In this document: one piece after another, positions 1 through 29,968 of the stretch | Numbering within the stretch: the stretch's first letter is position 1 | How the letters are laid out: each line of letters begins with the position of its first letter | DNA from: a virus | IMG/VR virus record: IMGVR_UViG_3300024999_000034 | Coordinates: 64,001 to 128,000 of that record | Direction: 5' to 3' (one strand) | Length of the DNA stretch: 64,000 bases | Made by a program: the position numbers and the translations under genes | The notes under the pieces: generated by a model | Told to the model about the DNA's origin: nothing | Databases searched by the model: none | What the model saw: only the letters and a program-made list of their open reading frames with translations

Positions 1-1476
1 GACGCTATAATTGAGAAACTAAAATATGCTCATAGTTCATATTATAACCGCGAAGCAAAATGGGATCTCGATTGCATTGAGGTTGATGAAAACTTACAAC
101 ATATTCTAAGAGGAAAAGGATATAGGGTAATTCATGATAACTATTTGACTTTTGAAAGTTTCAAACATTATGACGCTGTGATAATGAACCCTCCATTCAG
201 CACAGGAGACAAATTTTTACTAAAAGCAATTGACATGCAAAAAGATCAAGGTGGAATTATTGTGTCATTGCTCAGTGCTGAGAACCTAAAAAATCCATAT
301 ACCAATATTAGAAAAGACTTAGTACAAAAACTAGAGGATTATAACGCTGAAATCGAATATATTCAAAATGCTTTTATTGATTCAGAACGCTCTACAATGG
401 TTGAGGTAGCACTAATATATGTCAACATTCCAAAAACTGAACAGTCATCTATAATTCTAGAAGGATTAAGGCAACAAGAAGTATTCCGCGAGGAAGTCCA
501 TAACAGCGGTAAAGTGGTCAATGCAGACTTTTTAAAAGGAATAGTCCAGAAGTATAATTTTGAAGTCAAAGCAGGACTAAGATTAATTGCAGAATATGAA
601 GCAATAAAACCATTTATACTATCTTCTTTTAAAGAAGATAGTAGTAACACAATTCTAAATTTAACTGTCAACGATAAAGATGGAAATTGTTCAAAAGAAA
701 ATTCTTATATTAAACAAGTCAGAATGAAATATTGGCTTGCACTTTTCACCAATGAGGAATTTATGAGTCTATTTACATCAAATCTAAGGGAAAAATATAG
801 GTCTAAAATAAGTGAGCTTAAAGACTACGATTTCAGCCTCTATAACATTTACACCATTAAAATTCAGTTAAACAACGAAATGGTAAAAGGGGTAGAGGAT
901 ACTATTTTAAATCTATTTGAGCAATTCAGCCATAAGCACCATTGGCACGATGAAACATCAAAAAATATACACTACTTCAATGGTTGGAAGACTAATAAAG
1001 GTTGGAAAATTAACAAGAAAGTTATTATTCCTTTACATGCTTTTAACGACTATAGTGGAGAGTTTCAACCAACTGATTATAAAATTGTTGATAAACTAAC
1101 CGACACGGAAAAGGTTTTCAATTATCTTGATCAGGGAGCGACAGAGGATGTAAATATTAAAGAAACATTGAAGTTTGCTGAAGGATATGGAGACACAAAG
1201 AAAATACCACTAAAATATTTTACTGTCACATTCTATAAGAAAGGTACTTGCCATATTGAATTTACTAATTTGGATTTGCTACATAAGTTCAATTTGTTCG
1301 GATCACAAAGAAAAGGTTGGTTGCCTCCTTCATATGGAAAATCAAATTATAAAGATATGACAAAGGAAGAAAAGACTATTATTGATGAATTTGAAGGAAA
1401 AGATTCCTATGCTAATGTCATGAGCAACAAAGACTATTTTATAGTCGAGACTTCTAAGTTGTTAATGTTGGCTTAG
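1..1476 (+). CDS. Class I SAM-dependent (N6-adenine-type) methyltransferase with DUF4942-like C-terminal domain, 5' truncated by the window
   Basis: Frame is open from base 1 (DCIEVDENLQHIL, then IMNPPF motif IV); long C-terminal region ends FYKKGTCHIEF...WLPPSYGK. Confidence 0.8.
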   Translation, partial: DAIIEKLKYAHSSYYNREAKWDLDCIEVDENLQHILRGKGYRVIHDNYLTFESFKHYDAVIMNPPFSTGDKFLLKAIDMQKDQGGIIVSLLSAENLKNPYTNIRKDLVQKLEDYNAEIEYIQNAFIDSERSTMVEVALIYVNIPKTEQSSIILEGLRQQEVFREEVHNSGKVVNADFLKGIVQKYNFEVKAGLRLIAEYEAIKPFILSSFKEDSSNTILNLTVNDKDGNCSKENSYIKQVRMKYWLALFTNEEFMSLFTSNLREKYRSKISELKDYDFSLYNIYTIKIQLNNEMVKGVEDTILNLFEQFSHKHHWHDETSKNIHYFNGWKTNKGWKINKKVIIPLHAFNDYSGEFQPTDYKIVDKLTDTEKVFNYLDQGATEDVNIKETLKFAEGYGDTKKIPLKYFTVTFYKKGTCHIEFTNLDLLHKFNLFGSQRKGWLPPSYGKSNYKDMTKEEKTIIDEFEGKDSYANVMSNKDYFIVETSKLLMLA

Positions 1477-1588
1477 ATTTGACAATGCAAAAGGCTGTAT
1501 AAGCTATAACAGCCACACTACAAGGGTTCGAGGGTATCCCTAGAAAATACCCTTTAAATAATTATTTTTAAATTCACTCTATCCCTAC

Positions 1589-1617
1589 TTATAAATTCTA
1601 TGACATCATGATATAAT
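1589..1617 (+). promoter_or_regulatory. sigmaA-like promoter with extended -10 and overlapping inverted repeat
   Basis: TTATAA-17-TATAAT with TGn; atgac(1600)...gtcat(1624) inverted repeat spans the -10. Confidence 0.55.
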
Positions 1618-1773
1618 AAGTCATGGACTAAAGCAACAAATAATTATTTTGATGATGCCTAAGATCCTGCAAACTATAACAATCATAACAATAGGTTGCA
1701 GGTGCTTGGAGTTTATCAAGGTAGGTAAGTATGATAAACTAGAGGAAGAATTAAGGAGGAATACATATTATGG

Positions 1774-2004
1774 ATGAAAAACATGAACTTAAAAGAGCAA
1801 TATGCAGCACGATTAGAGGAAATTTTTAAGAAATATGATCTTGATGGTGGTATGATACATTCGGCTTATGAGAGAGGGATTCAGACAGAAAACTTTTCAT
1901 CATGCTATATTGATTCTAGGGTAAAAAATTCTAAGAAAATAAGCACAGAGCTTGCAATTCTCTTGGATTATTACTTTCAGGATTTTCCAAATGCTAAAAT
2001 GTAA
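1774..2004 (+). CDS. Hypothetical protein
   Basis: ORF with AAGGAGG RBS. Confidence 0.7.
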   Translation: MKNMNLKEQYAARLEEIFKKYDLDGGMIHSAYERGIQTENFSSCYIDSRVKNSKKISTELAILLDYYFQDFPNAKM

Positions 2005-2050
2005 TTCCAACGAAATACGAATTTCTTGTGAAATGAAAGGAAGTTTTAAA

Positions 2051-2197
2051 ATGGATAAATTGACATTAATGTGTAATAATTGCTATGAAGTAGTTGTGAA
2101 TTGTGGCGAAACTCCTATTGATTGTCCTCATTGTGGATCAATAGAAACATGGGTTTTAAAAATCCCTATGAAGGAGAGTGTTAGAAATGCTAAATAA
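2051..2197 (+). CDS. Small zinc-ribbon protein (CxxC...CPHC)
   Basis: ATG at 2051 after AAGGAAG; MDKLTLMCNNC...DCPHCGS. Confidence 0.65.
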   Translation: MDKLTLMCNNCYEVVVNCGETPIDCPHCGSIETWVLKIPMKESVRNAK

Positions 2198-2312
2198 ATC
2201 AAAATTAACCAAACACCGCAAGTATATCAAGAAGCGTAAAAAAGTTTGGATTGCTTTATATGGATTGCCTTATCCGGTTAAACAAAATTATAGTCCTATT
2301 ACTTATCTATAG
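2187..2312 (+). CDS. Small basic hypothetical protein (41 aa, below ORF track cutoff)
   Basis: AAGGAG RBS; MLNKSKLTKHRKYIKKRKKVWIALYGLPYPVKQNYSPITYL. Confidence 0.5.
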   Translation: MLNKSKLTKHRKYIKKRKKVWIALYGLPYPVKQNYSPITYL

Positions 2313-2420
2313 GTCAATCAATGCAGAGTGGTAGAGCGTAATAACAATCAACGCTCTATTAATGCACAGAGCAGGTCACAAGTCCTGCTCAGATGCTAAA
2401 TATTGAGGAGAGTGTACATA

Positions 2421-2882
2421 ATGGCTAAAAGAATTATGAATGAGGTTAAAGTTTTTGTAATACGTTCTCAAAGAGATAGTTCCATCAGAGGCGAACGCGT
2501 TTTCTTAAACGAGCAATACGCAAAAAGTTTAGAATACGATTGTACTTATTTAGGTGGAGAGGATGTATATATAGATTCTATAACATTACCTTTTGTCGGC
2601 AAGCATGTTTCATATGTAGATGTATACAGAGGTTTTGACTATGATTACCCAGGAATGCATGATGCGGTTTATAAATCTGAATTATATCCATCTATTGAAC
2701 AAGCAAAATCAAGCAGAGCATGGAAACAAATCGAACAAGAGGTAGCAAAAGATCCTGAAGAATTCAATGTTTATCAAGATAAAATTTGTTCAAAGGATTA
2801 TGGTGGAGAAGACTGGTATTATGGAGATGTCATGGAAGGAAAGGTTTCAGCAAAAATAAAAAGGCTAAAAGTTATTCATTAA
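2421..2882 (+). CDS. Hypothetical protein
   Basis: GAGGAG RBS then ATG at 2421. Confidence 0.7.
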   Translation: MAKRIMNEVKVFVIRSQRDSSIRGERVFLNEQYAKSLEYDCTYLGGEDVYIDSITLPFVGKHVSYVDVYRGFDYDYPGMHDAVYKSELYPSIEQAKSSRAWKQIEQEVAKDPEEFNVYQDKICSKDYGGEDWYYGDVMEGKVSAKIKRLKVIH

Positions 2883-2986
2883 ACCTTGCAGAAGACAACC
2901 GCAATATAACAATAACAATCATGCGGTTGTAATGCACCAGCGCACGTTCCAAGTCGTGGCAGGATGCTAAAGAGGAGGTTAAATAT

Positions 2987-3172
2987 ATGCATATTAATTT
3001 AGTTCTAAATGATGAACAAACCAATTCAATTAAACAATCTTTATTTTCTGTATTATCTACTGGAGAATTAGCAGGTACTTTGTTTTCTAGAGTTATTACT
3101 GATAAATTCAATACCAATGAAAGCAAAGAACTAAAAACTGCATTAATTAATTTTTTAAGGTCTATTGAGTAA
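2987..3172 (+). CDS. Hypothetical protein
   Basis: GAGGAGG RBS. Confidence 0.65.
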   Translation: MHINLVLNDEQTNSIKQSLFSVLSTGELAGTLFSRVITDKFNTNESKELKTALINFLRSIE

Positions 3173-3220
3173 CTTCCCATGAAACTTACATTTCCAAGGC
3201 TCTAGCATCCACCACAATCC

Positions 3221-3249
3221 TTCCATAACGCACGCACGTATGCTATACT
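3221..3249 (+). promoter_or_regulatory. sigmaA-like promoter upstream of the RHH gene, with GC-rich operator-like spacer
   Basis: TTCCAT-17(aacgcacgcacgtatgc)-TATACT with TGn. Confidence 0.6.
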
Positions 3250-3274
3250 TGTAATAACAGAAGGAGGTATCACG

Positions 3275-3418
3275 ATGCAGGTATCACTAAATACTAGAAT
3301 CGAATTAGAATTACGTCAAAGACTAGACACTCATATCAAAAAAGTGAACCGTCCAATAGCTCAAATAGTTGCAGAAGCTATTGAAAAATATTTAGACGAA
3401 AAGGAGAAAAAAGACTAA
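3275..3418 (+). CDS. Ribbon-helix-helix (CopG/Arc-like) DNA-binding protein, 47 aa, not in the ORF track
   Basis: AAGGAGG RBS; MQVSLNTRIELELRQRLDTHIKKVNRPIAQIVAEAIEKYLDEKEKKD has the alternating beta-strand and two-helix RHH pattern. Confidence 0.75.
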   Translation: MQVSLNTRIELELRQRLDTHIKKVNRPIAQIVAEAIEKYLDEKEKKD

Positions 3419-3425
3419 ATTTTTA

Positions 3426-3454
3426 TTGACGTATGCGTGCAAGCGTGATATATT
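3426..3454 (+). promoter_or_regulatory. sigmaA-like promoter downstream of the RHH gene, sharing ACGTATGC with the upstream promoter
   Basis: TTGACG-17(tatgcgtgcaagcgtga)-TATATT with TGn. Confidence 0.65.
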
Positions 3455-3495
3455 GTTATTAATCTATTTGAATATTATTTATTAATTTAAAGGAA

Positions 3496-5240
3496 GTGCT
3501 AATTGTGTTTAGAGACGAAGAAGAAAAAGTAATGACTTCTAAAATCCAAAAAGTTAAACACACTATTAACAAAATCTTAGAGGGATGCGAAAATTGTCCA
3601 GAAGTCCAATATGGTTGGAGTGGTATGAGTATTGATGTATATTTATCTGGTGGTAGTTATCAAGTCAGAAATATGGTCGAAAGTCATTTCGTATACAGTA
3701 GAAAATATAGAGGGGTTGAAATATCAAATAATGACACCAAGAAACGCATTAGTTTTGTTCTTGCTTAAATCTTAAAAGAGGGAGTTTTTAAAAATGAATG
3801 ATGAGAATTTAAGAAAAGCATGGAAAACATTTGGTTGGGATAAACAAAAACCAGAAGAATTTAAGGCAATTGGAACACCTGAATTTGAAGAAATGCTAAA
3901 AGAATCAAAAATTGAAAAAATGATCAAAAACCTAGATGTCACTGAAAAAGATGCAAATTATATCAAAGATTCTCTAGTAGAAATTCAAATGCATCCTGAA
4001 GAAATCCTGGAAGTCAAAGAATCTGGTCAATTTACTTCAGACGGAGACATAATTTACAAAGTGGTTTTAACCTTAGATGGAGACATGGAAAGATTCGTTT
4101 GTTATATTTGAGTGATTTGTAGATTAAAGCCAGAGATACAGGACTTTAAGCATAACAATAACAGTTCTATATCTCTCCTTTAGTCTATTAATTAGAAAGA
4201 AGGTCGTAAAATGAAAATCAACGTTCTACACAGTCAACAAGATCCATTTTCCCAAACTATTCTATATGCTCCAGAACTTATTATTTCTGAAGCAATCCAC
4301 ATTGCTGAAAAATGTTTTCCTGCTGTAAGATTCTCAGAATTATATCCTCAAGAATATTTCTTCATTCTTGAAAGTGAAATCTGTCAATATGAAGAATATT
4401 CACGATATTCCAAAAAACCATCTATATACTCCTATTTTGGTGGGAAAGAAGAATTAGAAGTAAAATTCCAAGAAATGTATGAGAAGCAAATGAATAAATT
4501 AGGAGAATGTAAAATGGAAGATGCCATACTCATTAAAACCTACAATATTGGAGGCAAAACAACTGAACTACGTTTCACACCAAAAGCCAATACTCAAACA
4601 TGGCCAGGATATGATGACTCATTACCTTTACGCTATGCAGGATATTGGTATGGAACACATGACAACCATGAACACATTGGAAAGACAGAGAAAGAAGCAA
4701 TGGAATATCTTGCAGGAAATTATGGTATTTGATTAATTGAATTTGGATTCAATACACCATAAACCTATAATCTCTATAACAATCGCGGTGTATTGATTCG
4801 AGGTAAAATTAGTTAAATTAAGGAGTGAAGGAAATGAAAAAATGTTTTACTTTTAATATTTTTGCTACCAAAGAAAAGGCAGAAGCGTATGCAAAAGAGA
4901 TTCACAAACGAAAATATACAATTAGTGAGACAACCGATAAAAGCGGTTGGATACTTGCTTATTATCAGTGGAATTGATTTACTTTAAATCAATAATTTTC
5001 TGGGAAATGAAAGGAGTTTTATTAATGGAGAAGACTAAAGAACAGCACTACACAGAAGTAATTAACAATATGCTTCAAAGAGAATTAGAAGATTTGAAGA
5101 CAATTGTTCGAGACGTTGAAAAGGTATTGAAAGCGGATCTAATGAGCATTGACAACAAAGCTATTAAAGTATTAGAGATTATGCAAATGGTAAGATTTAA
5201 TACAGAGATTCTTAGAGAACTTCAACAAATGAAAAGGTAA
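3496..5240 (+). other. Run of small hypothetical CDSs: 3496-3768, 3794-4111, 4211-4732 (internal RBS+ATG suggests two genes), 4834-4977, 5025-5240
   Basis: ORF track plus RBS inspection. Confidence 0.65.
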
Positions 5241-5370
5241 ATAGGGCACTCAAAGCCCTTCCAAGCATCCTTGCAACGCTCATAACAGCATAACACCAAA
5301 CACTTGCAGAGCAAGGGGGTTTAGAAGAGTTCTGAAGACTCTATAAATAAAATCTAAGGAGGAATGTAAA

Positions 5371-5694
5371 ATGTATAAATGTGAATGTGTAAGATGTGGA
5401 TGGACAATAACCAATGATGACAGAGAAGAAATTATTCAAATTATTAAAGAAGGTGGTGGAGAGTATAAGGAATATGAATATTCAGAATGTCCTAGTTGTA
5501 TGCTTGACGGTTTGGATATTAGTCTAATTCCTGAATTAAATTTAAGCGAAAGCTTTAAACCAATTAAGTGTAAAGACTGTAATGAAGAATTTTATATTGC
5601 AGATGGCGAAAGAAAATTCTTTGAATCGAAAGGATTAAACTTACCAGTGAGATGTCATTTTTGTAGAGATAAAAGAAAAAATTATGCACGATAA
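5371..5694 (+). CDS. Double zinc-ribbon protein with C-terminal zf-trcl-like domain
   Basis: CKDCNEEFYIADGERKFFESKGLNLPVRCHFCR matches the CxxC..F...E..F...KG...P.RC..CR pattern; N-terminal CxxC pairs. Confidence 0.7.
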   Translation: MYKCECVRCGWTITNDDREEIIQIIKEGGGEYKEYEYSECPSCMLDGLDISLIPELNLSESFKPIKCKDCNEEFYIADGERKFFESKGLNLPVRCHFCRDKRKNYAR

Positions 5695-5840
5695 ATAAAC
5701 TACACTATCTAAAGAGCTTATGCTCTTTGCTCAGTCCTTGTATAACAAAACTCAATATAACAGTGGGTATACAAGGGTTGACCAAAGGATATAAACCTAA
5801 TCGATATATCCTAAAATAAATAAAGGAGGAGGAAACAATC

Positions 5841-6294
5841 ATGAATTTAAAACTACTCAAGGAATTCAAAGCAATTTGTGCCGAACATCCTCAAGTCCCT
5901 TTTACTATGGATGCTTTCGAAAAATTCATTGCTCATATTTCCAAATAATCTACATATTCTATATCATCTAACCAAATCACTAAATAAATTTATGAAAGAA
6001 GGTATTCCAATGCAAAAACCTAAAAACATGAAAAACTTAACTCATTCTGCTTCAAAATTAAATATCCTATACTTAGGCAAAGAAATTGTTTACACTGGCG
6101 AAGGTCACTCTCTAAAGCCTTACAGGGGAGAAATCATCAACATTGCTTACTACTCAAACCTTGAACCTGTTCCATATGCCGAGATTAAACTTAAAATCTG
6201 GAATAACCGGACAGTAACTAAGATCATGAAGTTATCTGATGTTGTGCTAGTATCCTCTATTAAGAAATCAAAGAAATCCAGAGTAGCAGCTTAA
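5841..6294 (+). other. Two small CDSs, 5841-5948 (35 aa) and 6010-6294; the track ORF 5878-6294 is over-extended
   Basis: GGAGGAGG RBS before 5841; GAAGG before ATG 6010. Confidence 0.55.
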
Positions 6295-6457
6295 TTCAAT
6301 ATCTTTTATATGGACACTGTATGATGTAAAATAATTATAACAATTGATGCCAATACGTTGTACAGTGTAATTCTTAAAGGATATTGTATAAATACAAACT
6401 ATCAATTAAATATCTCATTTTCACTATAACAAATCAAGTTAGGAGGTTGGAGCCACA

Positions 6458-6718
6458 ATGTCAAAATCAAAAGTATCAAAGTCAAATCATGAAATAATTT
6501 ATATCATTGCAAAATCTAAAGGATTCGTATATAATGGAGAAAATATATTTACATATGCAGACTGGTTAGCAAAAGGTTTTAGAGTAATCAAAGGTGAAAG
6601 AGCTTTCTCTACAACCAACTTATGGACCAAAGGAATCAATCGAAGAAAAACTTTGCAAAGTATTTTTACTATTGATCAAGTGGTTAAAATTTATACTAAG
6701 GAGTTGATTATGGTATAA
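6458..6718 (+). CDS. ArdC-N-like ssDNA-binding / antirestriction domain protein
   Basis: TYADWLAKGFRVIKGE...IFTIDQV resembles the ArdC N-terminal motif T(F/Y)xxW...G..V.KGE..F...Q. Confidence 0.6.
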   Translation: MSKSKVSKSNHEIIYIIAKSKGFVYNGENIFTYADWLAKGFRVIKGERAFSTTNLWTKGINRRKTLQSIFTIDQVVKIYTKELIMV

Positions 6719-6890
6719 TTTCCATAACAATTCCACTTTAGAATCACAAGGAGGTTAATATGACATATAAATTCAAGCAAGCAATTGTAAGTCAAGATCA
6801 ATATGTTTATGGTTTTAGATTTTATCTATCAATTGTGAAGTGGTATAGATAATCCATCAAACTAAATTAAATTATTAGGAGGAATTAAAA

Positions 6891-9800
6891 ATGATGCTAA
6901 CTGAAACTAAAATTGACCAAATGAGAAGAGATGTTTCCAGAATGAATCAAGCAACTGAATTCTTTATGTGGTATTCTGAAGAATATACACAAGAATGTAT
7001 TAAAAATCAAACACAACGTCCCAACATTATGATTATTAATGAAAAACCTTATCTAGTTTGTGGCTTAAGTTATTCAATTATGGAAATTCCTAAATGGTGC
7101 TATAGAAATGATACTAAATTTATTGGTGTAATTCCTAAAAGACTTCCTACATATCTAGATTTAGGAAATGATGAATCATATTCTAAATTGTTTGAAGATG
7201 CTTATAACAATTCTCATGTTACCGAACCAGTAAATGGAATTATAGAAAGGTTGTGTAATTGATGGAATTAGGCAATATTGTAAAAACCAAAGATCAAAGA
7301 CAAGGTAAAATTGTTCAAATTCAATTATCTTTAACTAGTAGAAAAATTTATGTAGTAGAATTTACTCAAAATGTTAGTGATGGATTTTTTGAGGAAGAAC
7401 TTGAGTTGGTTGACAATACTACAGTTTGGTATGATGTATTTGAAGCAATACGAGAATTATACAGGGATAAAAGCAAGAAAGCAGTATCGAAGAAAGGAGA
7501 AATTAAGTGGATAGAAAGGACTCTAGACAATATCTCAAAGGATAAGGTTAAAGACCTTGTATATATCAATGTGAATGGATTCGAGCATAATATACTTAGA
7601 GATATTGTGTTAGAATCATTGAACTTCAATATATGGTCTATTGTTGAGTAGAAATGTCATTTATGATATAACAGTTTGAGTTCTGAGGCTCTAGAGGATT
7701 TTTAATTAAATTAATTGGAGGAATAAAAATGAAAATTGATAAAGCAAAGTTTATAGAACAGTGCGTAGAATCAAACGAATGTATAATTGAAGAATTCCAT
7801 GATTATTTTGAAGTAGTCTCTTGTAATTGTAAATACGAAAATTGCGAAGGTTGGCAATTGATAACAAAAGAAAATGCATTTGAAAAATTGCGAGATAAAG
7901 TATTGAATAATAATTTAAAAATCAAGTTAAACAAATTAGGATTTAAATCAGTTTTAATTGAAGAAGATAATCTAAATAATATCTATGTAAAAGTGTGGTT
8001 CAATTTTGAAATGAATGGTAAAATACATTCAGATGGTAGACATGAGTTTTGCGATATTGGAAATTCAGAAGAAACATTGAATTATATTATTAAGTGGATT
8101 GATGATAAGGAAAAAGGATTTAAGGTAATTTTGTAAATTCTATATCCTTCGAATCTATTATTTCCAAGTATTCTAAATTTGAAGGAGCGTGTATTTATTA
8201 TGAAAAGACTATGTATTAACTATGAATTTGAACAAGAGATTCCAAAAGAAATACTCAAGGATAAAAATGTATACACTAGTGAAATCGGCTTTATCATTGT
8301 AAAAACTGAATACAAAAAGAAGTTTGAAAAGAAGTACGATATTCCATTAACAGACTTTTCAGAATGGTTTACGAAAAGATATAGTGAAACTAAAACGATT
8401 CATGAATTAATTTATGAAATATTAGAGGATGAACCACTTCTGAAGGATGAATGGGTAGAGCAAGATTTTACTGATAAATATTCTTCAGAAATGATTAAAT
8501 CAACACTCAATAAATTATCTTTTATGTCTGATGATAAAATTATTGAGTATATTTTAAGTTACAAGTTGGAAGAAGCATTGAAAATTGTTATTAAACCCTT
8601 TATAATGAATGAATCAATCAAAAAATATCAAGAGCGTGTTAAGGGTTTAGAAGATCAATATCGTATTGATTATTATAAGAAAATTACTGACCTTTAAAAA
8701 GCAAGGTTTATTGGAGTTTAAATAAGAAAGGAATTGAATATTAATGGAAATTTTCAAAATCAAAGACATTGATTATTGTTCTAAATGCCCATATAAAAGT
8801 AAATAACTCTGGTTTGAGCCAGTATAAAAAAGTATCTTAAGCTTGGTATGGTTGTTTAACTCTGTTAGGTGGTATAACAAATAACAGGAGGATGATTAAA
8901 ATGACAAATTATGAAAAAATTATGAACATGAGCATTGAAGAATTTGCAAAAACTAGAATCAATTATGATCCTGAGTGGGGCGAATATGGAAATGATATTT
9001 CAGGTAATGTATATGTATACGAAAATGATGCAATTGAAGATGAAATTAAATGGTTAAAACAAAAGGTAGAATAACGATGTCTAATACTATCAAAAGTAAA
9101 TTTTAAATGTATATTTAAAAGAAAGAAGGAATTTAATTATGACAACTGTTAATTTTAAATCTCTTAATTGGAAAATTGATGAGAGAACACTTAGAGGGGA
9201 TGGGAAATATAATACTGAAAAAGCAACAGTAGAAATTCAACTTCCAAATGGGGATTGGAAAATTTTTAGAAGTTATTCTCTTCATCGTGGAGCAAGTGTT
9301 GAAACGGATAATATTTGGAATCTTCTTATTCTTGATGGAAATTATTCCAAACATATTAATGTTGGCACTCTTGACAATGGCAAACAAATTACGGAAGAAG
9401 ACTATCGAGAATATATGCATAATTTATTTAATGGCATGACACAATATATTTTGTCTAGTGATTCAATTAATAATGTGGATGATGATAATAAATATTGTGA
9501 AGTTATCACTGAACATTTTGGAATTAAAAGAGAATATGAAATAACAAGATGTTCTACACTTGAAGAAGCAATAACAAAAGCAATGGAATTTTCTGATAAA
9601 ATTAAAAAGGTTTTTCATAGTCAAGATAGGGTATTTGTAAAAGTTGGTAATCTTTATTATAACCCTAACAAATTATTTTCAAATGGTATAGGTGTTTCTT
9701 GGATTTAATTTAAATTAATCTGTGCTAGTGATTTAATCTCATATCTTATATAACAGAGTCAATATAACAGATGCAGTTATAACATAGATATGGGATTATA

Positions 9801-10035
9801 TTATAGCATTGGTTGCTAAAAATAAAATTAAGGAGAAATTGAAATGAAAAAATTAAATGAGATTCAATTAGAAATCCAAAGACTTGAAAGGGAAAATGAT
9901 ATTAATAGAGACAGGTTAGAATATTTTGAAAAATTAGGGGACATGGATAGAGCAAAAATGTACACAAAAATGATTAGTAATTGTAGTATAAAGATTGATA
10001 CTCTTGGATGGGCAATTGATTACAAATATTTATAG
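6891..10035 (+). other. Run of hypothetical CDSs: 6891-7262, 7259-7651, 7729-8136, 8200-8697, 8901-9074, 9139-9708, 9844-10035
   Basis: ORF track and RBSs. Confidence 0.7.
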
Positions 10036-10500
10036 CTTAAAATGTTATTTTCATTTGGTCATTTTTACCATAACAGCCGACCATATTTATTGCATGGACT
10101 TTTTAAACTATACGTTATTCGTATAGTTAATATCCTAAGTCACAAATTGCGACTTTAAAAAGACGAATATCGTCTAGTAGATTAACGCTACCCAATATTG
10201 GGGAACGTCTTCTAGTAGTTCAGAAAATGCTTCGTATGTATTACGGACGAAGTAAAATAAAATATAAAGGATGTGAATAACAATGACACAAATACAAATT
10301 AAACATTCTTGTTGGTTCTGCCTCAATTTAGACTGCGATCATATAGAATATAAATCATGTCTCAAGAACCATAAACTTAAATTTATTTTCAATGTAAATG
10401 AATGTTCAGATTGGAATGGTTAATACTAATATCCAAGATATGGTATAACAGATTCAATATTATCTTTCCAACTTTGTTTTTATATTTGATTTAAAAACTA

Positions 10501-10528
10501 TTGCAATTTATTCCAAATGTGATAAGAT
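10501..10528 (+). promoter_or_regulatory. Promoter TTGCAA-16-TAAGAT with TGn
   Basis: Same -35/-10 type as the promoter at 16582. Confidence 0.5.
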
Positions 10529-10564
10529 GTAACTAAGAAATAAATATTTAAGGAGTGGTACATA

Positions 10565-13500
10565 ATGAAATATGTAAGAACAAATGCGTTAGCTGAAATA
10601 AAAGTAGGGAGAATATTTGTTTCTAAAGAAAATAATTCCTATGTCTATTTGGTAAAAGAAATCTTAAATGGAGGGATTATGGCAAGTCCTATAGGTGAAT
10701 TTGGAGAATCAGAAGAAGTTTATATTGGTGGTTTTGAGTTAGCTAGATTGTTACATGCAGTAATTCTAGTTCAATAATATCCCAGAAAAGGCAGAATTGA
10801 AAGGAGTTTGAATAATGGAAAATAATTGTTTTGGTTGTGAACATTGTTTTAATATTCCATCATATTTACAAAAACATTATGCAGAAATTGGTATGAACTT
10901 CCCTGTAGGAACGACACTATGTGGTTTAATTAGAAATATTCTTCCTAGTAATAACACTTGTAATGAGTTTGAAGAAAGAGAATGGGAGGATGATAAATCA
11001 TGAATGAAAATTATATTGTACTAGAGGGAGACATTGAAAACTCAGATGAGGATTGCACATTTGCTAAAATTATAAAAGGCGGAATATCATTAAAGCAATA
11101 TGATTCTAAAAGTAAACAAATGGTTACGATTTTCTTGACAAATGAAGAAGTCGGAGAATTGGAAAAAGAATTATCTACTAGAGGGAAATATTAATTAAAA
11201 TTTAAGGAGGATGTATTATATGACAAATACAAAATTAGTAAAAGAATGTGTCCAAGAGGATGTTGTAAAATACTTTGTGAAACGTGAAGATGGAATTGAT
11301 TACCTAAAAGTAAATGTTAAAAAGGATGGCACAATCAAGAAAACCAAATATATACTTAGAGGAATGAGTAACTATGAGATGGAATTGGAGAAAACCAGAT
11401 TAATTAGGCAAGGGTATACTGAGCAAATTTTACCCAACCAAATGTAACTTTTAAATGCTTTGGAAAATAAAATTTAAAGAGGAGAGTGTACATAATGAAA
11501 AAGAATTTAGTACCTGCTATTCCGGTGATGTCTTGGGATAAAGAATTAACTGAAAGACAAATAAACCTCGCAAAAGGAAGTTGTCACAAAATATCTAAGA
11601 AGCAAATGGTTAAAAGAATCTTATCATTCATGAAAAGTAATCAAATTACTGATGCGGATAGAAAGGTGTTTAATAAAATCCTTGGTGATACTAAACTATT
11701 AAATAAACTTCAGATTTGCACGGATGGTTCTTGGCTTAATGGTAGAATTTTTTATAAGAATTTCTTTAATCAATCTGATGCAAATATTTGTGTTGACGGA
11801 GAATATTGGATGCAATATTATAGGGATAATAATGTAAGTCCCGACACTTTTACAAAACTTAACTACATGAAATACAATTTCGAGGTAATATATTTACACT
11901 TGGTTAGCAATAGTAGAGAATTTGATCACGAATACCATGAAGAAAACCTACTAACAAATTTCAATGTTGATCAACTTCCAATTTATGAAAAAGCATTAAA
12001 AGATTTTGGAGACAGTAGTTTATACATTACTGATCAAGCTTATGATAATCGTGGAAGATTATTATCTGACTATTATTCATTAAGAACAAAATCAAATAAA
12101 GATAGATCAGATTTTTGGAAATTATTCAGAGGAATAAGAGATAAAATTTCAGCATAAAACAGTCTTTGGACGGATTTTATAATTAGAAAGGATGAAGGAA
12201 AATGAAAAGAATTCCTTACTCATTTAGCAAACGTGGAGATATAATTAACCATCCTAGTATCAATCAAATTGTATGGTACTGTGATGCCGATAAACCAGAT
12301 ATGAGAGTAGTAATTATCAATAAGGTAAATCGTAATTATTACAGCAATGGAGGAGATCAATGGGAATGGCAAGAGGTATTTGAGGATGGCACTTTAGGAA
12401 GAGAAGAAAGTGGAAGAGATAATTTTTATTTATATTATGGTGGATATAAGGTTTTCAAAACTGTAGAATTTAATTAAGATTAAGAAAGGATGATAATAAT
12501 GGATAAGATTAAAAGACTTGGTAAAATACTTGAAGAATATAAAAATGGGAAAAGTTATTCTGCTTGTTTGGCATTAATTGATGATATGGAAAAGAACTGT
12601 TTTAATTTTGAGTTATTATGTCAAACATTTGATGATGCAATACAAAGTGTGACTCCTAGAAGTGGCCCATAGCTTCATTCTTAGAGTCGTAATATCCCTT
12701 AAAATCACTCTTTCAAAGAGTATAACAGAGGAGGTAATATAATGAAAGTTGTAGGTAAAGGTGATCACAGACAGGTTGCACATGAATGTTCGTGGTGTGG
12801 TGAGTATATCAATGAGTTAGAAGGTGATGATAAAACAACTCATGATGGTAACATGTATCATTATGGATGTTTTGAAGAAATGATGGATGAAAATAGATTT
12901 TATGAATCCGTAGATAAAATACATGAGAGCGAATAAATCTGACATATCATGAGAAAAAGGTATTTCCTCTTAAATATAGAACTTATACTAAAATACTATT
13001 ACACAAGGGGAGATACCAAAAATGCATTGGAAATCTAACATAACTTCATGGAAAGATCCAAACACAAATGAATTTGTCACTCGAAAAGAATATGGAAAAT
13101 TATCTAAGAGAGCGTCAGTTAATGGATTGTCTGCTCCTGAATATTTAATCTCTAAGGGTTATTTTAAAGACAGATATCATTATTACAGGTTTAAGGATAA
13201 AATGTTTTTGGATAGGGAAAATTGAAAGGATGATTAAATTATGGGATACTCAATTTATAAAATAGATTTTGACACTCAAGAGAAAACTATATTATATGAT
13301 TGTATTGAAGATATTCAAAAAGCAGATTTATTAGCACAATTGGCAATGTGTAATAAAACAACTAATGAACTGATTTTCATTTGTGCAGGATGGAATAGGA
13401 GTATTGATAGAGATTCAGAATTGTATAGTAAAGTTTTGGAATTGGCTGTAGAATATAAAAGCGAAAGGAAGTGTTAAGATGGATAAATTTAAAATTATGA

Positions 13501-21494: not shown

Positions 21495-22394
21495 ATGACA
21501 ACGGTCAATACACATGCATTATATGTTCAAAATCACAGAACAAATGATAATGGAATAGTAGAAAGAAGATGTACGAAATGCCAAGAATGGTTGGAAGAAA
21601 GCTATGACAATTATTACTATGTAAATAAAAAAGACGTAAATAAAAAATTTCTACCCGAATGTAGAAAATGTACCGTTAAAAGATCAAGTAAAAACCAAGC
21701 CGAAAATAAGGATAGAGCAAGTGCTACTCAAAAAGCATGGAAAGATGAGAGAAGAGATGAATTACACGATGCTTTTAGAGCATGGAAAAAATCAGTTATA
21801 GGACATATTAGACGGTATCAAAGAGGATACCAACAATCAAGCAAGGGTAAGAGTAAATATAAAGTATACGGTCTAAAAAGATATTTTGAAAAGAATCACG
21901 ATATTAGTTCTAAAGAGTGGATTGCTTGTAAAGACTATTTTAAAGATAAAGATGGTGATTGGAGTTGTGCCTACTGTGGATTAAAAATACAAGATCACTT
22001 AATAGATCGTGCAGGAAATTTGGTAAAGAGCGACTTTCATAAAGAACACAATAACGATAAGGGGTCAAACGATCTGAGTAATTGCATACCTAGTTGCGGA
22101 AGTTGTAATTACAAAAAGTGGTCATTTCCTTTCGAAGAATGGTATAGGAATTATGAATATTTTAACGAAGATAGATATGATAAAATAATTAAATGGATAG
22201 AGGAGGATTATAAATTTTATATTGAAGATAAACCACCATATCGTATTAGAAAAAAGAAGAATAAAGATAACAATAAATTTCATCATGAATTATGGACTGT
22301 TGACAAGTACAGAAATATGATAGAATGTATAGCAATAGCAGATAAAAAGAAAGACTTACATACATTTATTCAAAAATATTTTAATGTTGCATAA
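21495..22394 (+). CDS. Zn-finger HNH endonuclease, paralogue 1
   Basis: RCTKC/PECRKC N-terminal Zn sites; CAYCG...KEHNNDKGSNDLSNCIPSCGSCN HNH motif. Confidence 0.8.
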   Translation: MTTVNTHALYVQNHRTNDNGIVERRCTKCQEWLEESYDNYYYVNKKDVNKKFLPECRKCTVKRSSKNQAENKDRASATQKAWKDERRDELHDAFRAWKKSVIGHIRRYQRGYQQSSKGKSKYKVYGLKRYFEKNHDISSKEWIACKDYFKDKDGDWSCAYCGLKIQDHLIDRAGNLVKSDFHKEHNNDKGSNDLSNCIPSCGSCNYKKWSFPFEEWYRNYEYFNEDRYDKIIKWIEEDYKFYIEDKPPYRIRKKKNKDNNKFHHELWTVDKYRNMIECIAIADKKKDLHTFIQKYFNVA

Positions 22395-26986: not shown

Positions 26987-29103
26987 GTGTTTACAAGAAT
27001 GAAAGACATTAAACTTTATCCACACAATCAAGAAACTTACGATAAGATCCAAACACTATGGAAAACTGAAAACAAAGTTTCAGCAGTTCAGGCCACCGGC
27101 ACAGGAAAATCATATCTGATACTAAAGTGTATCTATAATGATCCTGAAGCAAACAAGGTAGTTCTAGCACCTTCTAATTACATATTAGAGCAATTGATAA
27201 ATGAAGCAGGAGAAGAATTACCGAATACAAAAACTCTTACCTATTCTAAATTATCATATATGAGTGATACAGAAATAAAAGAGTTAAATATTGGATATAT
27301 TTTCCTTGATGAATTTCATAGATGCGGAGCAGAGCAATGGGGAGATGGAGTACAAAGATTATTAAATGCATTTCCAAATGCTAAAGTATTGGGAACATCT
27401 GCAACTCATATTAGATTTCTAGATAACGCAAGAAACATGGGAGAAGAATTATTCAATGGAAACATTGTTAATAATCTATCTCTTGCAGAAGCAATTGTAA
27501 AAAAGATATTACCTATGCCTAAATATATTTCTGCATTGTATACTTTTGACGATGAAGTTAATAATCTCAAAACGAAAGTAGAAAACAGTAAAAATGATGA
27601 AGAATCTAAAAAAGAAATGTTAAAAGAAATTGAAATAATGAAGAATAAATTAAACAAAAGCAAAGGCATTCCTAATATTCTAAAGAAACATTTGTCTAAA
27701 GACTATAGTGGAAAGTTTATTATTTTCTGTAAAGATAAAGTTCATTTGGATGAAATGAAAGAAACTGTTGTTGAATGGTTTATGAATGGTTTAAGCAATC
27801 AAAAGTCACAAAACAAGTAGATGTTTACACTATTTATAGTAATTATACAAATGGTGATATTGAAGTCAATGAATTTATAAATAATAAAAATCCTAAATCA
27901 ATTAAACTTTTATTTAGCATTGGAATGTTTAATGAAGGAATTCATATTGAGGACGTAACAGGGGTTATTTTATTAAGACCCACTACATCTCCTATTATTT
28001 ATTATCAACAAGTGGGTAGAGCTATGCAGGTTGGAAATGGTAATTCTCCCATTATATTTGATTTAGTAAATAATTTTAGTAATATGGGAGCAAAGAATTT
28101 TATTAGTGATTTGGAAAAACATGCCGAACGAGAGAATGATAAGCATAAAGATGATAGCGAAAATAATTGCATTGATGTTTCTGAATTTATTATTTTTGAT
28201 GAAATTATCGAAGCTACGGATTTGTTTACCACAATTGAAAATAATTTAATTGGAGATTGGGATGCGATGTATGAGGAAATAAAATATTTTTACAATGAAA
28301 ATGGGCATTGTAATGTTAATACAAAGACTGGTGGAAAATTAGGGAATTGGGTACATACACAGAGAAGGTGTTTTAAATTATTAGAACTAAAAGAAGAAAG
28401 AATTAAATTACTTAATGATATTAATTTTGCTTGGGAAATAAATGATAAAAATTGGTATGATAAAGCTTGGGAAGACACATTTAAATTATTATCAGAATAT
28501 TATAATATATATAATCATTTTCCGGCCAAAGGAGAGGTTTATAAGGAAAACATACTCGGAAATTGGATAATTCAACAGAGAAGATTCTTTAAACAAGGAG
28601 AATTGTCTTTTGATAAAGAAAATAAATTAAATTCCATAAATTTCATTTGGGATATGCACCAAGATAGACGAGAAGAAATAACTAATCGTATTTTAGATTT
28701 TAAACAAAAATATGGTCACTTAAATATTCCTGAAAATTATGTGATAAACGGTAATAAGTTGTTATCACAAGTATATGTCATAAGAAAAGGTTATAAAAAA
28801 GGTAATTTATCTAACGAAATAATTAATAAGTTAAATGGTGTTGGATTTGAATGGGATAATAAGGAACATCATAAAGATATATTTGAAAAATATCATCTAT
28901 ATAATGTTTTAAAAGAAAATAATACAGGTATTGTAGAGTTTTCTAAATTAATAGGAGTCCAGAGAACAAGTGTTGGGGCTTGGGTAAACAATAGAAGCGA
29001 TATACCTAAAAAATATATCTCTAAAATTTCCGAAATGTTTAATATTGAACCACAATTGCTTCAACCACAAAAAGGAGATAGATGTGTTAATAAAATAGCG
29101 TAA
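26987..29103 (+). pseudogene. SF2 (DEAD/DEAH-like) helicase with helicase-associated repeats and C-terminal XRE HTH, split by an 11-bp tandem duplication
   Basis: ATGTGKS, LDEFHR, GTSAT in ORF 26987-27820; GMFNEG, QQVGRAM, LGNW repeats and HTH in ORF 27775-29103; (tgaatggttta)x2 at 27772-27793. Confidence 0.8.
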
Positions 29104-29212: not shown

Positions 29213-29968
29213 ATGTTAGAATTAAATAAAGTATATAATGAAGACTGTATTGGCGAAAGAGGTATGTGTCTAATTAAAGATAAGTCAATAGACATGATTT
29301 TATGTGATTTGCCGTATGGTGTCACTGCAAGGAATAAATGGGATTCAATTATACCATTTGATAAACTTTGGAAACAATATGAGTGTATAATTAAGGATAA
29401 TGGAGCAATAGTATTATTTGCTAAATCTCCATTCGACAAGTCTTTAGCAATGAGTAATATAAATTTGTATAAATATGAATGGATATGGTACAAAAACAAA
29501 GTAACAGGACATTTAAATTCTAAAAAGATGCCTATGCAAGCTCATGAAAACATATTAGTGTTTTATAAAAAACTTCCTACATATAATCCTCAAATGAGCG
29601 AAGGACATAAACCTATGAACTATGCTGTCAACCATCACGAAAATATTAGTACATATGGAGATGGAAAGAAAACAAAAAATCAAGCAGGAACCACAAAGCG
29701 GTATCCTAAAACCATTCTCGAATTCAACGTAGTAAATCAAGATAGTCCTGAAAGAATCCACCCATCGCAAAAACCAGTTGAATTATGTGAATGGCTAGTA
29801 AATACATACACAAATGAAAATGATTTAGTTTTGGATAATTGTATGGGAAGTTTTACTACCGCAATAGCATGTATTAACACAAATAGAAATTATATTGGAT
29901 TTGAATTAGATGATGGGTATTATGATTTAGGGAATAAAAGATTAGAAAGTTTGATATATGTAAAGTGA
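29213..29968 (+). CDS. Site-specific DNA methyltransferase (N4-C/N6-A, beta class)
   Basis: ILCDLPYG, HPSQKP, VLDNCMGSFTT, YIGFELD. Confidence 0.9.
   Translation: MLELNKVYNEDCIGERGMCLIKDKSIDMILCDLPYGVTARNKWDSIIPFDKLWKQYECIIKDNGAIVLFAKSPFDKSLAMSNINLYKYEWIWYKNKVTGHLNSKKMPMQAHENILVFYKKLPTYNPQMSEGHKPMNYAVNHHENISTYGDGKKTKNQAGTTKRYPKTILEFNVVNQDSPERIHPSQKPVELCEWLVNTYTNENDLVLDNCMGSFTTAIACINTNRNYIGFELDDGYYDLGNKRLESLIYVK

Follow-up and report, generated by a model that had tools for sequence, protein, structure and literature searches.

A large SPbeta-like phage of Clostridia marks one 20-kb block of small early genes with about 57 same-strand copies of the word ATAACA, often displayed in RNA hairpin loops (two of the hairpins belong to twister ribozymes), and the word is purged from the same DNA strand in the rest of the genome. 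The stretch of DNA analyzed (referred to here as the window) comprises 64,000 nucleotides (nt), bases 64001 to 128000 of a 180.8-kb phage contig that encodes a YonO-type RNA polymerase. We found no literature on this pattern, and no described system accounts for it. A first-pass annotation of the sequence had described a family of long leader hairpins with this word in the loop, confined to the first 13 kb of the window; that observation was confirmed, and the pattern proved to be stronger than described.

In the window, 36 of the 40 copies in the first 14 kb are on the plus strand, although the window as a whole is below expectation (67 copies observed, 90.6 expected). In the whole contig, the plus strand holds 57 copies in 55 to 77.5 kb, against about 15 to 19 expected. 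ATAACA ranks first of all 4,096 hexamers there and gives the best regional log-likelihood of any hexamer (78, against 42 for the next), while variants with one mismatch are not enriched. Of the intergenic regions of at least 40 nt, 20 of 27 in the block carry the word, compared to 0 of 16 just upstream and 3 of 103 downstream. The consensus, including the flanks, is c-[T/C]-ATAACA-[A/G]. The annotation was correct that the family is not seen after about 13 kb, but the block begins about 7 kb before the window. It starts directly after a strong promoter (TTGACG, 17 nt, TAAAAT) and a leader of roughly 350 nt with a boxA-like CTCTTTGAAAA, and the 12 kb of rightward genes before it hold only 2 copies, neither of them in an intergenic region.

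Strong imperfect hairpins with ATAACA in the terminal loop were found at nine positions within the window, with dG values from −12 to −30 kcal/mol, and several of the remaining sites named in the annotation were weaker than listed (Table 1). To determine whether the word is displayed in loops more often than its base composition predicts, a condition that the annotation had itself set, we compared it with AT-matched control hexamers from the same regions. In the minimum-energy folds, 7 of 31 intergenic copies lie in the terminal loop of a stem of at least 5 bp, compared to 15 of 400 for the controls (odds ratio, 7.5; P = 4e-4). Of 33 strong intergenic hairpins, 13 have the word in the loop; these loops are enlarged to 11 to 28 nt and hold up to three copies. 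The structures favor the plus strand (summed dG, −286 for the plus strand and −227 for the complement; Wilcoxon P = 0.04), about 15% of stem pairs are G-U, and the hairpins start 3 to 30 nt after stop codons.

Table 1. Features of the ATAACA block. Positions are those of the window unless marked as genome positions; dG is in kcal/mol.
Position	Strand	Feature	dG	ATAACA copies
Genome 58118-58185		Good hairpin upstream of the window		
Genome 59521-59568		Good hairpin upstream of the window		
Genome 60078-60149		Good hairpin upstream of the window		
1-12727	+	Part of the block within the window; whole block, genome 56983-76727		57 on the plus strand in the whole block, the first at genome 56983
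1-1476	+	3' part of an orphan N6-adenine DNA methyltransferase gene (Dam-like domain plus DUF4942, from Pfam); full gene, genome 63875-65476		
1493		Part of the word lies in the stem		
1646-1722	+	Long imperfect hairpin in a 5' leader, 23-nt loop at 1673-1695; second hairpin at about 1712-1740; no Rfam match	−27.8	Two, in the loop
2322-2387	+	Twister-P5 ribozyme no. 1 (RF02684, 57.1 bits, E 6e-10); P1 stem-loop 2329-2361 with a 13-nt loop (4 nt in the family consensus); hairpin 2369-2390 is the conserved GGUC.CAAG.CC hairpin; predicted cleavage between U2360 and A2361		2341-2346, in the loop
2887-2958	+	Twister-P5 ribozyme no. 2 (RF02684, 46.8 bits); P1 stem-loop 2895-2930 with an 18-nt loop (strong hairpin, 2888-2935); predicted cleavage between U2930 and A2931		Two (2906-2917), in the loop
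3254-3259	+	Copy 4 nt after a -10-like TATACT, abutting the ribosome-binding site of a 47-aa ribbon-helix-helix-like gene (read directly from the sequence)		One
4114-4193	+	Hairpin starting 3 nt after a stop codon	−24.1	Two adjacent (4152-4163), in or at the loop
4730-4815	+	Hairpin with a 28-nt loop	−23.3	One (4776-4781), in the loop
5250-5335	+	Hairpin	−21.2	Two (5282, 5290), in the loop
5724-5788	+	Hairpin; second hairpin at 5787-5811	−21.0	Two (5742, 5757)
6297-6386	+	Hairpin starting 3 nt after a stop codon	−30.1	One (6337), in the loop; a further unstructured copy at 6426
6714-6729		Arrangement similar to 3254-3259 (TATAAT, 4 nt, ATAACA)		
7666		No convincing hairpin		
8808-8886	+	Pistol-ribozyme-like fold (8808-8874; RF02679, 24.4 bits, E 0.2-0.7; below the gathering score of 34.5 and not accepted as a member), followed directly by copies running into the ribosome-binding site		Two (8874, 8881)
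8862		Part of the word lies in the stem		
9728-9804	+	Hairpin with a branched loop	−22.2	Three (9750, 9764, 9779), in the loop
10056		Weak hairpin	−3.9	
10443		No convincing hairpin		
12693-12736	+	Right border of the block; last intergenic copy, beside (not inside) a small hairpin and abutting the ribosome-binding site		One (12722)

Two of the hairpins are the P1 stems of Twister-P5 ribozymes (Roth et al. 2014). Both match the covariance model RF02684 over all 58 positions (1 to 58) and above the gathering score of 37.6 bits, with the conserved core and the pseudoknot-forming hairpin, and the short second hairpin noted by the annotation at 2369-2390 is part of the first of them. The cleavage sites are inferred from alignment to the family consensus, by analogy with the Osa-1-4 twister. 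The word sits in the enlarged, noncatalytic loops and is not part of the family consensus. Location between small genes of a phage is the usual bacterial context for this family, but only 2 of about 14 hairpins are twisters: a search of 20 intergenic regions with lax filters gave no further Rfam match at E values up to 5, and none was found in the rest of the genome or in relatives. The intergenic regions share no motif other than the word and the ribosome-binding site, and no structured RNA carrying the complement of the word was found.

To examine conservation, we used the methyltransferase as bait to find related phages. It is the only gene family shared by all seven loci, which is by construction, and only four of the loci have a clear block; L012, L014, and L015 have the methyltransferase but no enrichment of the word. 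The flanks are conserved in four phages. Related phages keep the word at up to 7 copies per kb (in the relative G001), in unrelated genes and largely without hairpins: it fills coding sequence, the spacers between ribosome-binding site and start codon, and post-stop positions. No loop preference was seen in G001 (9% against 8%) or in L013 (4% against 5%); the conserved unit is the word and not the hairpin, and loop placement in the phage studied here may partly reflect loops being the only unconstrained intergenic positions. Both usable reading frames are enriched in coding sequence (10 against 2.7 and 11 against 6.3 here; 23 against 8.8 and 25 against 9.6 in G001), indicating selection at the nucleic acid level. 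The intergenic regions of the relatives are not homologous. Clustering showed that, besides the bait, only an LPD29-type protein is shared between blocks.

Outside the block, the plus-strand word is purged from genes of both orientations. Rightward genes hold 9 copies against 30.0 ± 4.8 expected, and there are no copies at all in 105.1 to 158.9 kb. In leftward genes, it is the antisense orientation that is missing, with sense TGTTAT found 3 times against 15.8 ± 2.9 here, 3 against 7.5 in the relative G002, 0 against 7.9 in the relative G003, and 0 against 2.0 in G001; the purge is clear in two relatives (G002 and G003) and a weak trend in a third (G001). Sense ATAACA is normal in these genes (20 against 22.9 in late genes). 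ATAACA is the only strongly orientation-asymmetric depleted hexamer (combined z of −8.2, against −1.5 for the opposite orientation).

The interpretation offered by the annotation, a shared RNA or single-stranded DNA recognition element coregulating one early gene block, was partly supported. One shared element, displayed single-stranded on the plus strand on unrelated stems, does mark a single block of early genes far beyond chance, but the named analogues do not fit, although all are structured elements between early phage genes. Lambda nut and HK022 put sites are one or two defined structures per operon, whereas here there are 57 copies, also within coding sequence, without a common stem architecture and with one boxA-like sequence in the leader only. 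RNase III sites, as in T7 or SPO1, are read through their stems. PeSL cassettes of T4-type phages are long homologous repeats containing a promoter and a stem, whereas only a 9-nt word is shared here, which also occurs without any hairpin. The T4 RegB sites (GGAG in early intergenic regions) and the MazF pentad or heptad regulons involve a short single-stranded RNA word concentrated in one class of messages, mostly between genes and near ribosome-binding sites, and scarce elsewhere, a pattern that ATAACA follows for rightward genes and for loop display; the present case differs in that copies are also selected inside coding sequence, the antisense strand of leftward genes is purged, and late messages are not purged, and no nuclease has been linked to ATAACA.

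The main rival to a signal on RNA, only somewhat less likely in our view, is a polar DNA-strand signal, read as single-stranded DNA or by a machine moving one way along the genome, such as a replication fork or helicase-primase, the terminase during headful packaging, a helicase-nuclease processing ends in a Chi-like manner, or an FtsK/SpoIIIE-type pump. The block would then be a zone where the signal is wanted, for example, next to pac, where the ends of headful-packaged virion DNA fall, or a replication terminus, and stray co-oriented copies elsewhere would be harmful. One rule would explain the purge from genes of both orientations; the enrichment in G001 is independent of coding, frame, and hairpins; the word is kept although block gene content is unrelated between phages; and plus-strand-specific folding fits single-stranded DNA as well as RNA. 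In G001, an opposed cluster of 5 minus-strand copies in 250 nt lies upstream of the leftward promoter, on the other side of the strand-switch region, recalling a fork trap such as that formed by Ter sites, and in SPbeta phages pac lies at the equivalent region and packaging is headful (Kohm et al., preprint). Like Chi (RecBCD/AddAB), which is read in unwound single-stranded DNA, and KOPS/SRS (FtsK/SpoIIIE), the word has a strand bias that ignores gene direction. However, no process of this kind is known to use an AT-rich word of 6 to 9 nt; the known words are G-rich, are enriched genome-wide in the permissive orientation, and are not confined to a 20-kb block or shown in hairpin loops, whereas here one orientation is purged outside the block and the other is merely neutral. 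A Chi-type signal does not predict a purge, and no cognate translocase or nuclease was identified. The reading also gives no reason for the 7-fold loop preference, the enlarged twister loops, or a block starting exactly after a promoter and leader. GC and AT skews at 4-fold sites give no sign of one-way replication, and the contig has no terminal repeats that would place the virion ends.

The other readings appear unlikely. The remaining hairpins might be undescribed self-cleaving ribozymes, or AUAACA the target of a trans-acting ribozyme (a hammerhead would accept AUA followed by cleavage), so that the word would be part of an RNA-only processing system, given the two twisters, the pistol-like fold, and the clustering of such ribozymes in phage-like regions (PMC6765202); the Rfam and motif searches argue against this, the word lies outside the twister catalytic core, and coding copies and the strand-wide purge are not explained. 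Antitermination or factor-loading sites of the nut/put/ops type, on nascent RNA or the nontemplate strand, would fit the promoter with its boxA-like leader, the absence of intrinsic terminators on the plus strand in the first 18 kb, and the sense orientation of the copies, but known systems need one or two sites per operon, not 57 to 92, and not inside coding sequence; the hairpins share no stem or loop architecture, purging sense copies from other rightward operons would be pointless for a positive signal, and the antisense purge is unexplained. It is similarly unlikely that the word is a target or regulatory site of the Dam/DUF4942 methyltransferase encoded inside the block, which might be strand- or single-strand-specific. 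Asymmetric A-rich hexamers are typical targets of orphan adenine methyltransferases (for example, CAAAAA for CamA), and single-strand-specific, orientation-dependent plasmid enzymes exist (M.EcoGIX and M.BceJIII/M.BceJIV; PMC7736820), but co-occurrence is biased by the bait, three loci with the gene lack enrichment, methylation gives no reason for clustering, loop display, or a one-strand purge, and no solved or characterized homologue was found. Least likely are hairpin promoters for the phage's own polymerase, a 941-amino-acid YonO-like two-barrel enzyme (PF05183, E 7e-13; 48% identity to BUCT082 YonO). Short promoter words are used by other noncanonical phage polymerases, and the promoter of YonO has not been identified (PMC5467207), but in SPbeta, YonO transcribes only the late operon from a single start. 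A promoter word should be avoided in both orientations outside its block, yet the minus orientation is neutral; 92 promoters in 12.8 kb, many inside genes, is implausible, and five other YonO phages lack any such block. The hairpin promoters of the N4 virion RNA polymerase, also hairpins with specific loop bases placed before early genes of a phage with its own polymerase, have stems of 5 to 7 bp and 3-nt loops, number three per genome, and are read on the template strand of extruded DNA; here loops are longer, there are dozens of copies, folding is plus-strand-specific, and the G-U asymmetry argues against symmetric cruciforms.

We tentatively favor c-Y-ATAACA-R as a short, oriented recognition word, read in single-stranded form on early transcripts. 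The analysis itself establishes the word and its flanks, the block-limited enrichment, the loop preference, the two ribozymes (as matches to the family model), conservation in relatives, and the purge elsewhere; that the reader acts on RNA, that it is a protein, and what it does are inferences, as are cleavage of the word by any nuclease and self-cleavage of the twisters. No reader was identified. A MazF-type enzyme is the only concrete candidate: the phage encodes two MazF/PemK RNases (both within the 105.1- to 158.9-kb region lacking the word), a T4 Rnl1-like RNA ligase, and a polynucleotide kinase, and G001 has a MazF gene inside its block, but the MazF proteins of G000 and G001 are only 35% identical. 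A purely mRNA-level signal does not predict the strand-wide purge and would explain it only if rightward antisense transcripts cross the late region, and because late messages are not purged of sense ATAACA, the reader would have to be absent or inactive on YonO transcripts. In this view, the word would tag the first rightward (immediate-early, accessory, or antidefense) gene block of this phage lineage. The hairpins, beginning a few bases after each stop codon, would close the 3' end of each cistron and would include the dispensable P1 loops of two twister ribozymes predicted to cut the transcript just 3' of that hairpin. A trans-acting RNA-binding protein or sequence-specific endoribonuclease reading AUAACA on the early polycistronic RNA would, together with the ribozymes, set the processing, lifetime, or translation of the single-gene messages, and genes outside the block would be kept free of the word.

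The window comprises bases 64001-128000 of a single 180,838-bp virus contig (28.8% G+C). The contig encodes a phage portal protein (phrog_2739) and a 941-amino-acid YonO-type single-chain, two-barrel RNA polymerase (Pfam RdRP PF05183, E 7e-13), which is 48% identical to the YonO of Bacillus phage BUCT082 and 25-29% identical to those of SPbeta, c-st, and Enterocloster phages. Genes at 1-45 kb run leftward and comprise the late operon and the operon that contains yonO, which lies upstream of the late operon, as in SPbeta; genes at 45-181 kb run rightward. Many HNH and endonuclease-VII-like genes are scattered through the rightward region, where pieces matching one large helicase/methyltransferase family (phrog_16) look like a polyvalent protein split into several genes.

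To determine how far the distribution of ATAACA departs from expectation, we compared its counts on both strands of the contig with Markov models of order 1-3. The hairpins listed in the first-pass annotation exist, and most of them are strong, with dG values from -12 to -30 kcal/mol. Plus-strand ATAACA is extremely localized, with 57 copies in genome 55-77.5 kb against 15-19 expected; it is the most enriched of the 4,096 hexamers there and gives the highest regional log-likelihood of any hexamer in the genome (78, against 42 for the next, which is compositional). None of the 18 one-mismatch variants is enriched. The flanks add information, giving the consensus c-[T/C]-ATAACA-[A/G], and of the 29 plus-strand matches to YYATAACAR, 26 lie in the block. 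The family starts about 7 kb before the window, so that the first-pass annotation covered only two thirds of it. Within the block, 20 of 27 intergenic regions of at least 40 nt carry the word (29 copies in 3.0 kb), compared with 0 of 16 in the 12 kb of rightward genes just upstream and 3 of 103 in the 104 kb downstream.

The first-pass annotation had named as a refuting result that ATAACA would not be enriched in loops relative to an AT-matched background, and this was not what we found. Intergenic copies lie in the terminal loop of a stem of at least 5 bp in 7 of 31 cases, compared with 15 of 400 for AT-matched hexamers from the same regions (odds ratio 7.5, P = 4e-4), and in an unbiased hairpin scan 13 of 33 strong intergenic hairpins have the word in the loop. 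The hairpins fold better on the plus strand than on the complement (summed dG of -286 against -227 kcal/mol; 8 of the 10 strongest are more stable on the plus strand; Wilcoxon P = 0.04), and about 15% of their stem pairs are G-U; they are therefore plus-strand structures and not symmetric cruciforms. They begin 3-30 nt after the preceding stop codon and are not followed by U-runs, and no plus-strand intrinsic terminator was found in 18 kb. Promoter and terminator scans were uninformative in this AT-rich DNA (104 promoter-like sites against 112 in shuffles, and no plus-strand terminators). The block starts with a transcription unit: a promoter (TTGACG, 17 nt, TAAAAT) followed by a roughly 350-nt noncoding leader with a boxA-like CTCTTTGAAAA lies directly in front of the first ATAACA copy. 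Within the block, a 47-amino-acid ribbon-helix-helix-like gene is flanked by two promoter-like regions that share a GC-rich repeat (ACGCACGCACGTATGC upstream and CGTATGCGTGCAAGCGTG downstream), which is a likely autoregulated operator pair.

Two of the hairpins are parts of known ribozymes, as they belong to sequences that match the complete Twister-P5 model above its gathering score of 37.6 bits. In both alignments, the ATAACA copies lie in the loop of stem P1, where the family consensus has four bases and these copies have 13 and 18. A second short hairpin that the first-pass annotation had listed separately is the conserved GGUC.CAAG.CC hairpin of the first ribozyme. By the family consensus, cleavage is inferred to fall directly 3' of P1; after cutting, the upstream message would end in a hairpin whose loop shows AUAACA, and the gene between the two ribozymes would be released as a 570-nt RNA with 5'-OH and cyclic-phosphate ends. 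A pistol-like fold stays below threshold (24.4 against 34.5 bits). No other known RNA family matches any of 20 intergenic regions, the rest of the genome, or the relatives, and the intergenic regions share no other motif apart from the ribosome-binding site; in particular, a search for a second conserved box found none within -20 to +36. A guide RNA carrying the complement was not found, nor were phage tRNAs, for which we searched to test a codon/anticodon-loop idea.

Coordinates of features in the phage contig and in its relative G001 (L-prefixed handles are the sequence segments in which a feature was read)
Feature	Coordinates	Strand	Remark
ATAACA block	genome 56983 to window 12722	plus	first copy to last intergenic copy
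Promoter and leader	genome 56480-56880 (L004:6480-6880)		directly before the first copy
Twister-P5 ribozyme	window 2322-2387	plus	57.1 bits; predicted cleavage U2360|A2361
Conserved hairpin of this ribozyme	window 2369-2390	plus	
Gene between the ribozymes	window 2403-2882		
Twister-P5 ribozyme	window 2887-2958	plus	46.8 bits; predicted cleavage U2930|A2931
Promoter-like regions with shared repeat	window 3176-3460		flank the ribbon-helix-helix-like gene
Ribbon-helix-helix-like gene	window 3275-3418		
Pistol-like fold	window 8808-8874		below threshold
YonO-like RNA polymerase gene	genome 28335-31160 (L002:8335-11160)	minus	
T4 Rnl1-like RNA ligase and polynucleotide kinase	genome 144154-145479 and 146810-147724 (L005:16154-17479 and L005:18810-19724)		
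Two MazF/PemK genes	genome 151,084-151,398 and 155,945-156,271		
Stretch without plus-strand ATAACA	genome 105086-158888 (window 41086 to beyond the window end)		53.8 kb; contains both MazF genes and an Agr-like cassette
HNH and endonuclease-VII-like genes	window 21495-22394, 36282-37988, 43180-44088, and 62239-63135, and L006:3476-5080		
phrog_16 pieces	window 26987-27820, 27775-29103, and 29213-29968		
MazF/PemK gene of G001	L016:5555-5959		Pfam 119.9 bits; inside the G001 block
Minus-strand ATAACA cluster of G001	G001 joined coordinates 10604-10847 (L017, reverse strand)	minus	five copies in 250 nt

To find relatives, we used the block's orphan methyltransferase (Dam-like domain plus DUF4942) as bait and obtained six IMG/VR loci with 53-82% identity, from genome fragments that were 28-53% complete and were read only in part. 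Four phages show the block: this one, G001 (locus L016), G002 (locus L013), and G003 (locus L011), and they share the same flanks, c-Y-ATAACA-R. Since the methyltransferase was the bait, its presence in every locus is by construction; apart from an LPD29-type protein, it is the only family the loci share. In G001, the block starts abruptly about 3 kb after the strand switch and holds 92 plus-strand copies in 12.8 kb, found between ribosome-binding site and start codon, after stop codons, and inside genes. Its MazF/PemK gene has one copy in its coding sequence and one between its ribosome-binding site and start codon. The minus-strand cluster of G001 lies upstream of a consensus TTGACA, 17 nt, TATAAT promoter of the leftward YonO operon and is opposed to the plus-strand array that starts 3 kb to the right. 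Both usable reading frames are enriched in G001 (23 against 8.8 and 25 against 9.6 expected) and also here (10 against 2.7 and 11 against 6.3), and the selection therefore acts on the nucleic acid and not on the protein. Loop preference is seen in this phage (19% against 10% over all copies) and in L011 (15% against 7%) but not in G001 or L013. The conserved unit is the word, whereas the hairpin display is a feature of some members only. The regions downstream of the methyltransferase in six phages do not align, that is, homologous intergenic regions do not exist between the relatives, and no covariance model was built.

Other searches for relatives gave nothing comparable. A megablast of the first 12 kb against phage records found nothing, and a search of GTDB genomes with the methyltransferase found no relative. 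BUCT082, the closest named phage by YonO, was examined as a whole genome and has no regionally enriched hexamer of this kind, and the YonO phages PMBT24, c-st, TR-TP1, and MT835481 show even, unclustered counts of YATAACAR; the word is therefore not a general YonO or SPbeta feature. A Pfam search with ten proteins encoded upstream of and at the head of the block found nothing. Literature searches on ATAACA or AUAACA and on DUF4942 returned nothing relevant, and we found no paper describing the word.

Outside the block, the plus strand is depleted of the word, with 5 copies in 1-45 kb (about 24-28 expected), 15 copies in 77.5-181 kb (46-82 expected), and none at all between 105,086 and 158,888 (about 24-40 expected), while the minus strand is near expectation. 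We checked this depletion with synonymous-codon shuffles. In rightward genes outside the block, sense ATAACA was observed 9 times against 30.0 ± 4.8 expected (0 of 300 shuffles as low), whereas sense TGTTAT was not depleted (36 against 42). In leftward genes, sense TGTTAT, which is plus-strand ATAACA, was observed 3 times against 15.8 ± 2.9 expected (0 of 300 shuffles as low), whereas sense ATAACA was not depleted (20 against 22.9). Among all hexamers, TGTTAT is the most depleted nonhomopolymer in leftward genes, and ATAACA is fourth in rightward genes, after two homopolymers and AATTTT. ATAACA is the only strongly orientation-asymmetric case, the other depleted words being homopolymers and restriction-type palindromes. 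Classical restriction-site avoidance was seen in coding sequence for AGATCT (0 against 18.7 in rightward genes and 0 against about 10 in leftward genes) and AGTACT (3 against 13.7 and 0 against 9.6), and GGTCC, GGACC, CCAGG, and CCTGG are nearly absent in the Markov analysis of 77.5-181 kb.

The antisense purge in oppositely oriented genes repeats in the relatives G003 (0 against 7.9 ± 2.1; 0 of 300 shuffles) and G002 (3 against 7.5; P = 0.017) and is a weak trend in G001 (0 against 2.0; P = 0.08), with sense ATAACA normal in each. The avoidance therefore follows the DNA strand and not the coding strand. A "polarity flip" inside the block, in which the opposite orientation would be purged there, was moderate here (3 against 7.4) and strong in L012 (0 against 7.4 for sense TGTTAT) but absent in L013 and L016, and we do not rely on it. 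L012 is the 21.5-kb locus of a further relative, G004, that has the methyltransferase but no enrichment of the word, which suggests that polarity can persist without the array.

The observation made in the first-pass annotation thus held, and the feature is real, conserved, and statistically extreme. The interpretation given there, a shared recognition element that co-regulates one early gene block, was supported only in part, and the analogues it proposed (nut/put, RNase III sites, and PeSL) are not supported. The word and its flanks, the block-limited enrichment, the loop preference, the two ribozyme matches, the conservation in relatives, and the purge elsewhere were read from the sequences themselves, whereas ribozyme cleavage, the action of a reader on RNA, its being a protein, and what it does are inferences. 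The reading that we prefer, though only tentatively, is an RNA one, in which a protein binds or cuts AUAACA and, with the ribozymes, sets the processing, lifetime, or translation of the early messages, while genes outside the block avoid the word. It rests on the plus-strand hairpins that close each cistron, the deliberate enlargement of the ribozyme loops, the 7-fold loop preference, the start of the block directly after a strong promoter and a boxA-like leader, the MazF gene inside the G001 block, and the RNA-cleavage toolkit of the phage (two MazF/PemK genes, an Rnl1-like RNA ligase, and a polynucleotide kinase). The ligase and kinase together form an RNA-repair pair whose substrates (5'-OH and 2',3'-cyclic phosphate ends) are exactly what twister ribozymes and MazF-type RNases produce, and religation or circularization of ribozyme-released messages is conceivable. 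The weakness of this reading is the purge on the antisense strand of leftward genes, together with the lack of any purge in late messages; explaining both would need rightward antisense transcripts across the late region or a second rule.

The main alternative, which appears less likely, is that ATAACA is a polar, strand-specific genome-organizing word of a clostridial SPbeta-like phage lineage, read on the plus DNA strand by a one-way machine such as a replisome, terminase, end-processing nuclease, or DNA pump, with its dense array next to the strand-switch/pac region acting as a stop, terminus, or end-protection zone; alternatively, the same reader might bind the word in both single-stranded DNA and RNA. 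No phage system of this kind has been described. The DNA reading explains the purge with one rule and also explains the hairpin-free, coding-blind arrays of G001, and it is compatible with the position of pac at the equivalent strand-switch region of SPbeta and with the opposed minus-strand cluster of G001. However, no known polar process uses such a word or purges it, and this reading does not explain the loop display or the promoter-coincident start; four-fold-site skews gave no hint of one-way replication, and no terminal repeats were found. Less likely still are promoters for YonO, rejected mainly because the opposite orientation is not avoided and because SPbeta YonO has a single late start, as well as nut/put-type antitermination, a methylation target, and undiscovered or trans-acting ribozymes. 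We also considered avoidance of type III or type ISP restriction, which was rejected because both orientations coexist in the genome, so that head-to-head pairs are not avoided, and a sigma-A -10 box (TATAAC), which was rejected because there is no -35 at the right spacing, CATAACA variants are common, and the purge is one-sided.

The two twisters are ordinary new members of a known family, which explains part of the feature. The word system resembles the RegB and MazF "word regulons" on the RNA side and Chi, KOPS, or Ter words on the DNA side, but it shows the features of the former only in part, in that late messages are not purged and the antisense strand of leftward genes is, and it lacks the genome-wide overrepresentation of the permissive orientation that defines Chi/KOPS-type words. 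Its core, an oriented 9-nt word with block-limited enrichment and a genome-wide one-strand purge, has no described counterpart, and its reader is as yet unidentified. The word provides a simple marker for finding the hypervariable early accessory (candidate antidefense) islands of this phage lineage in metagenomes. The biological role of bacterial and phage self-cleaving ribozymes is a long-standing open question (PMC6765202), and here two twisters sit in a regular series of cistron-closing hairpins and carry the same loop word as their nonribozyme neighbors, giving them a concrete, testable context: processing of an early antidefense operon together with a word-reading factor. A 6- to 9-nt word that is enriched up to 10-fold in one block and is the most strongly one-strand-purged hexamer in the rest of a 181-kb genome, in a pattern that repeats in phages sharing almost no genes in the block, implies a strong and unknown selective agent, and its reader would be either a new class of phage RNA regulator or nuclease or the agent of a new polar DNA signal.
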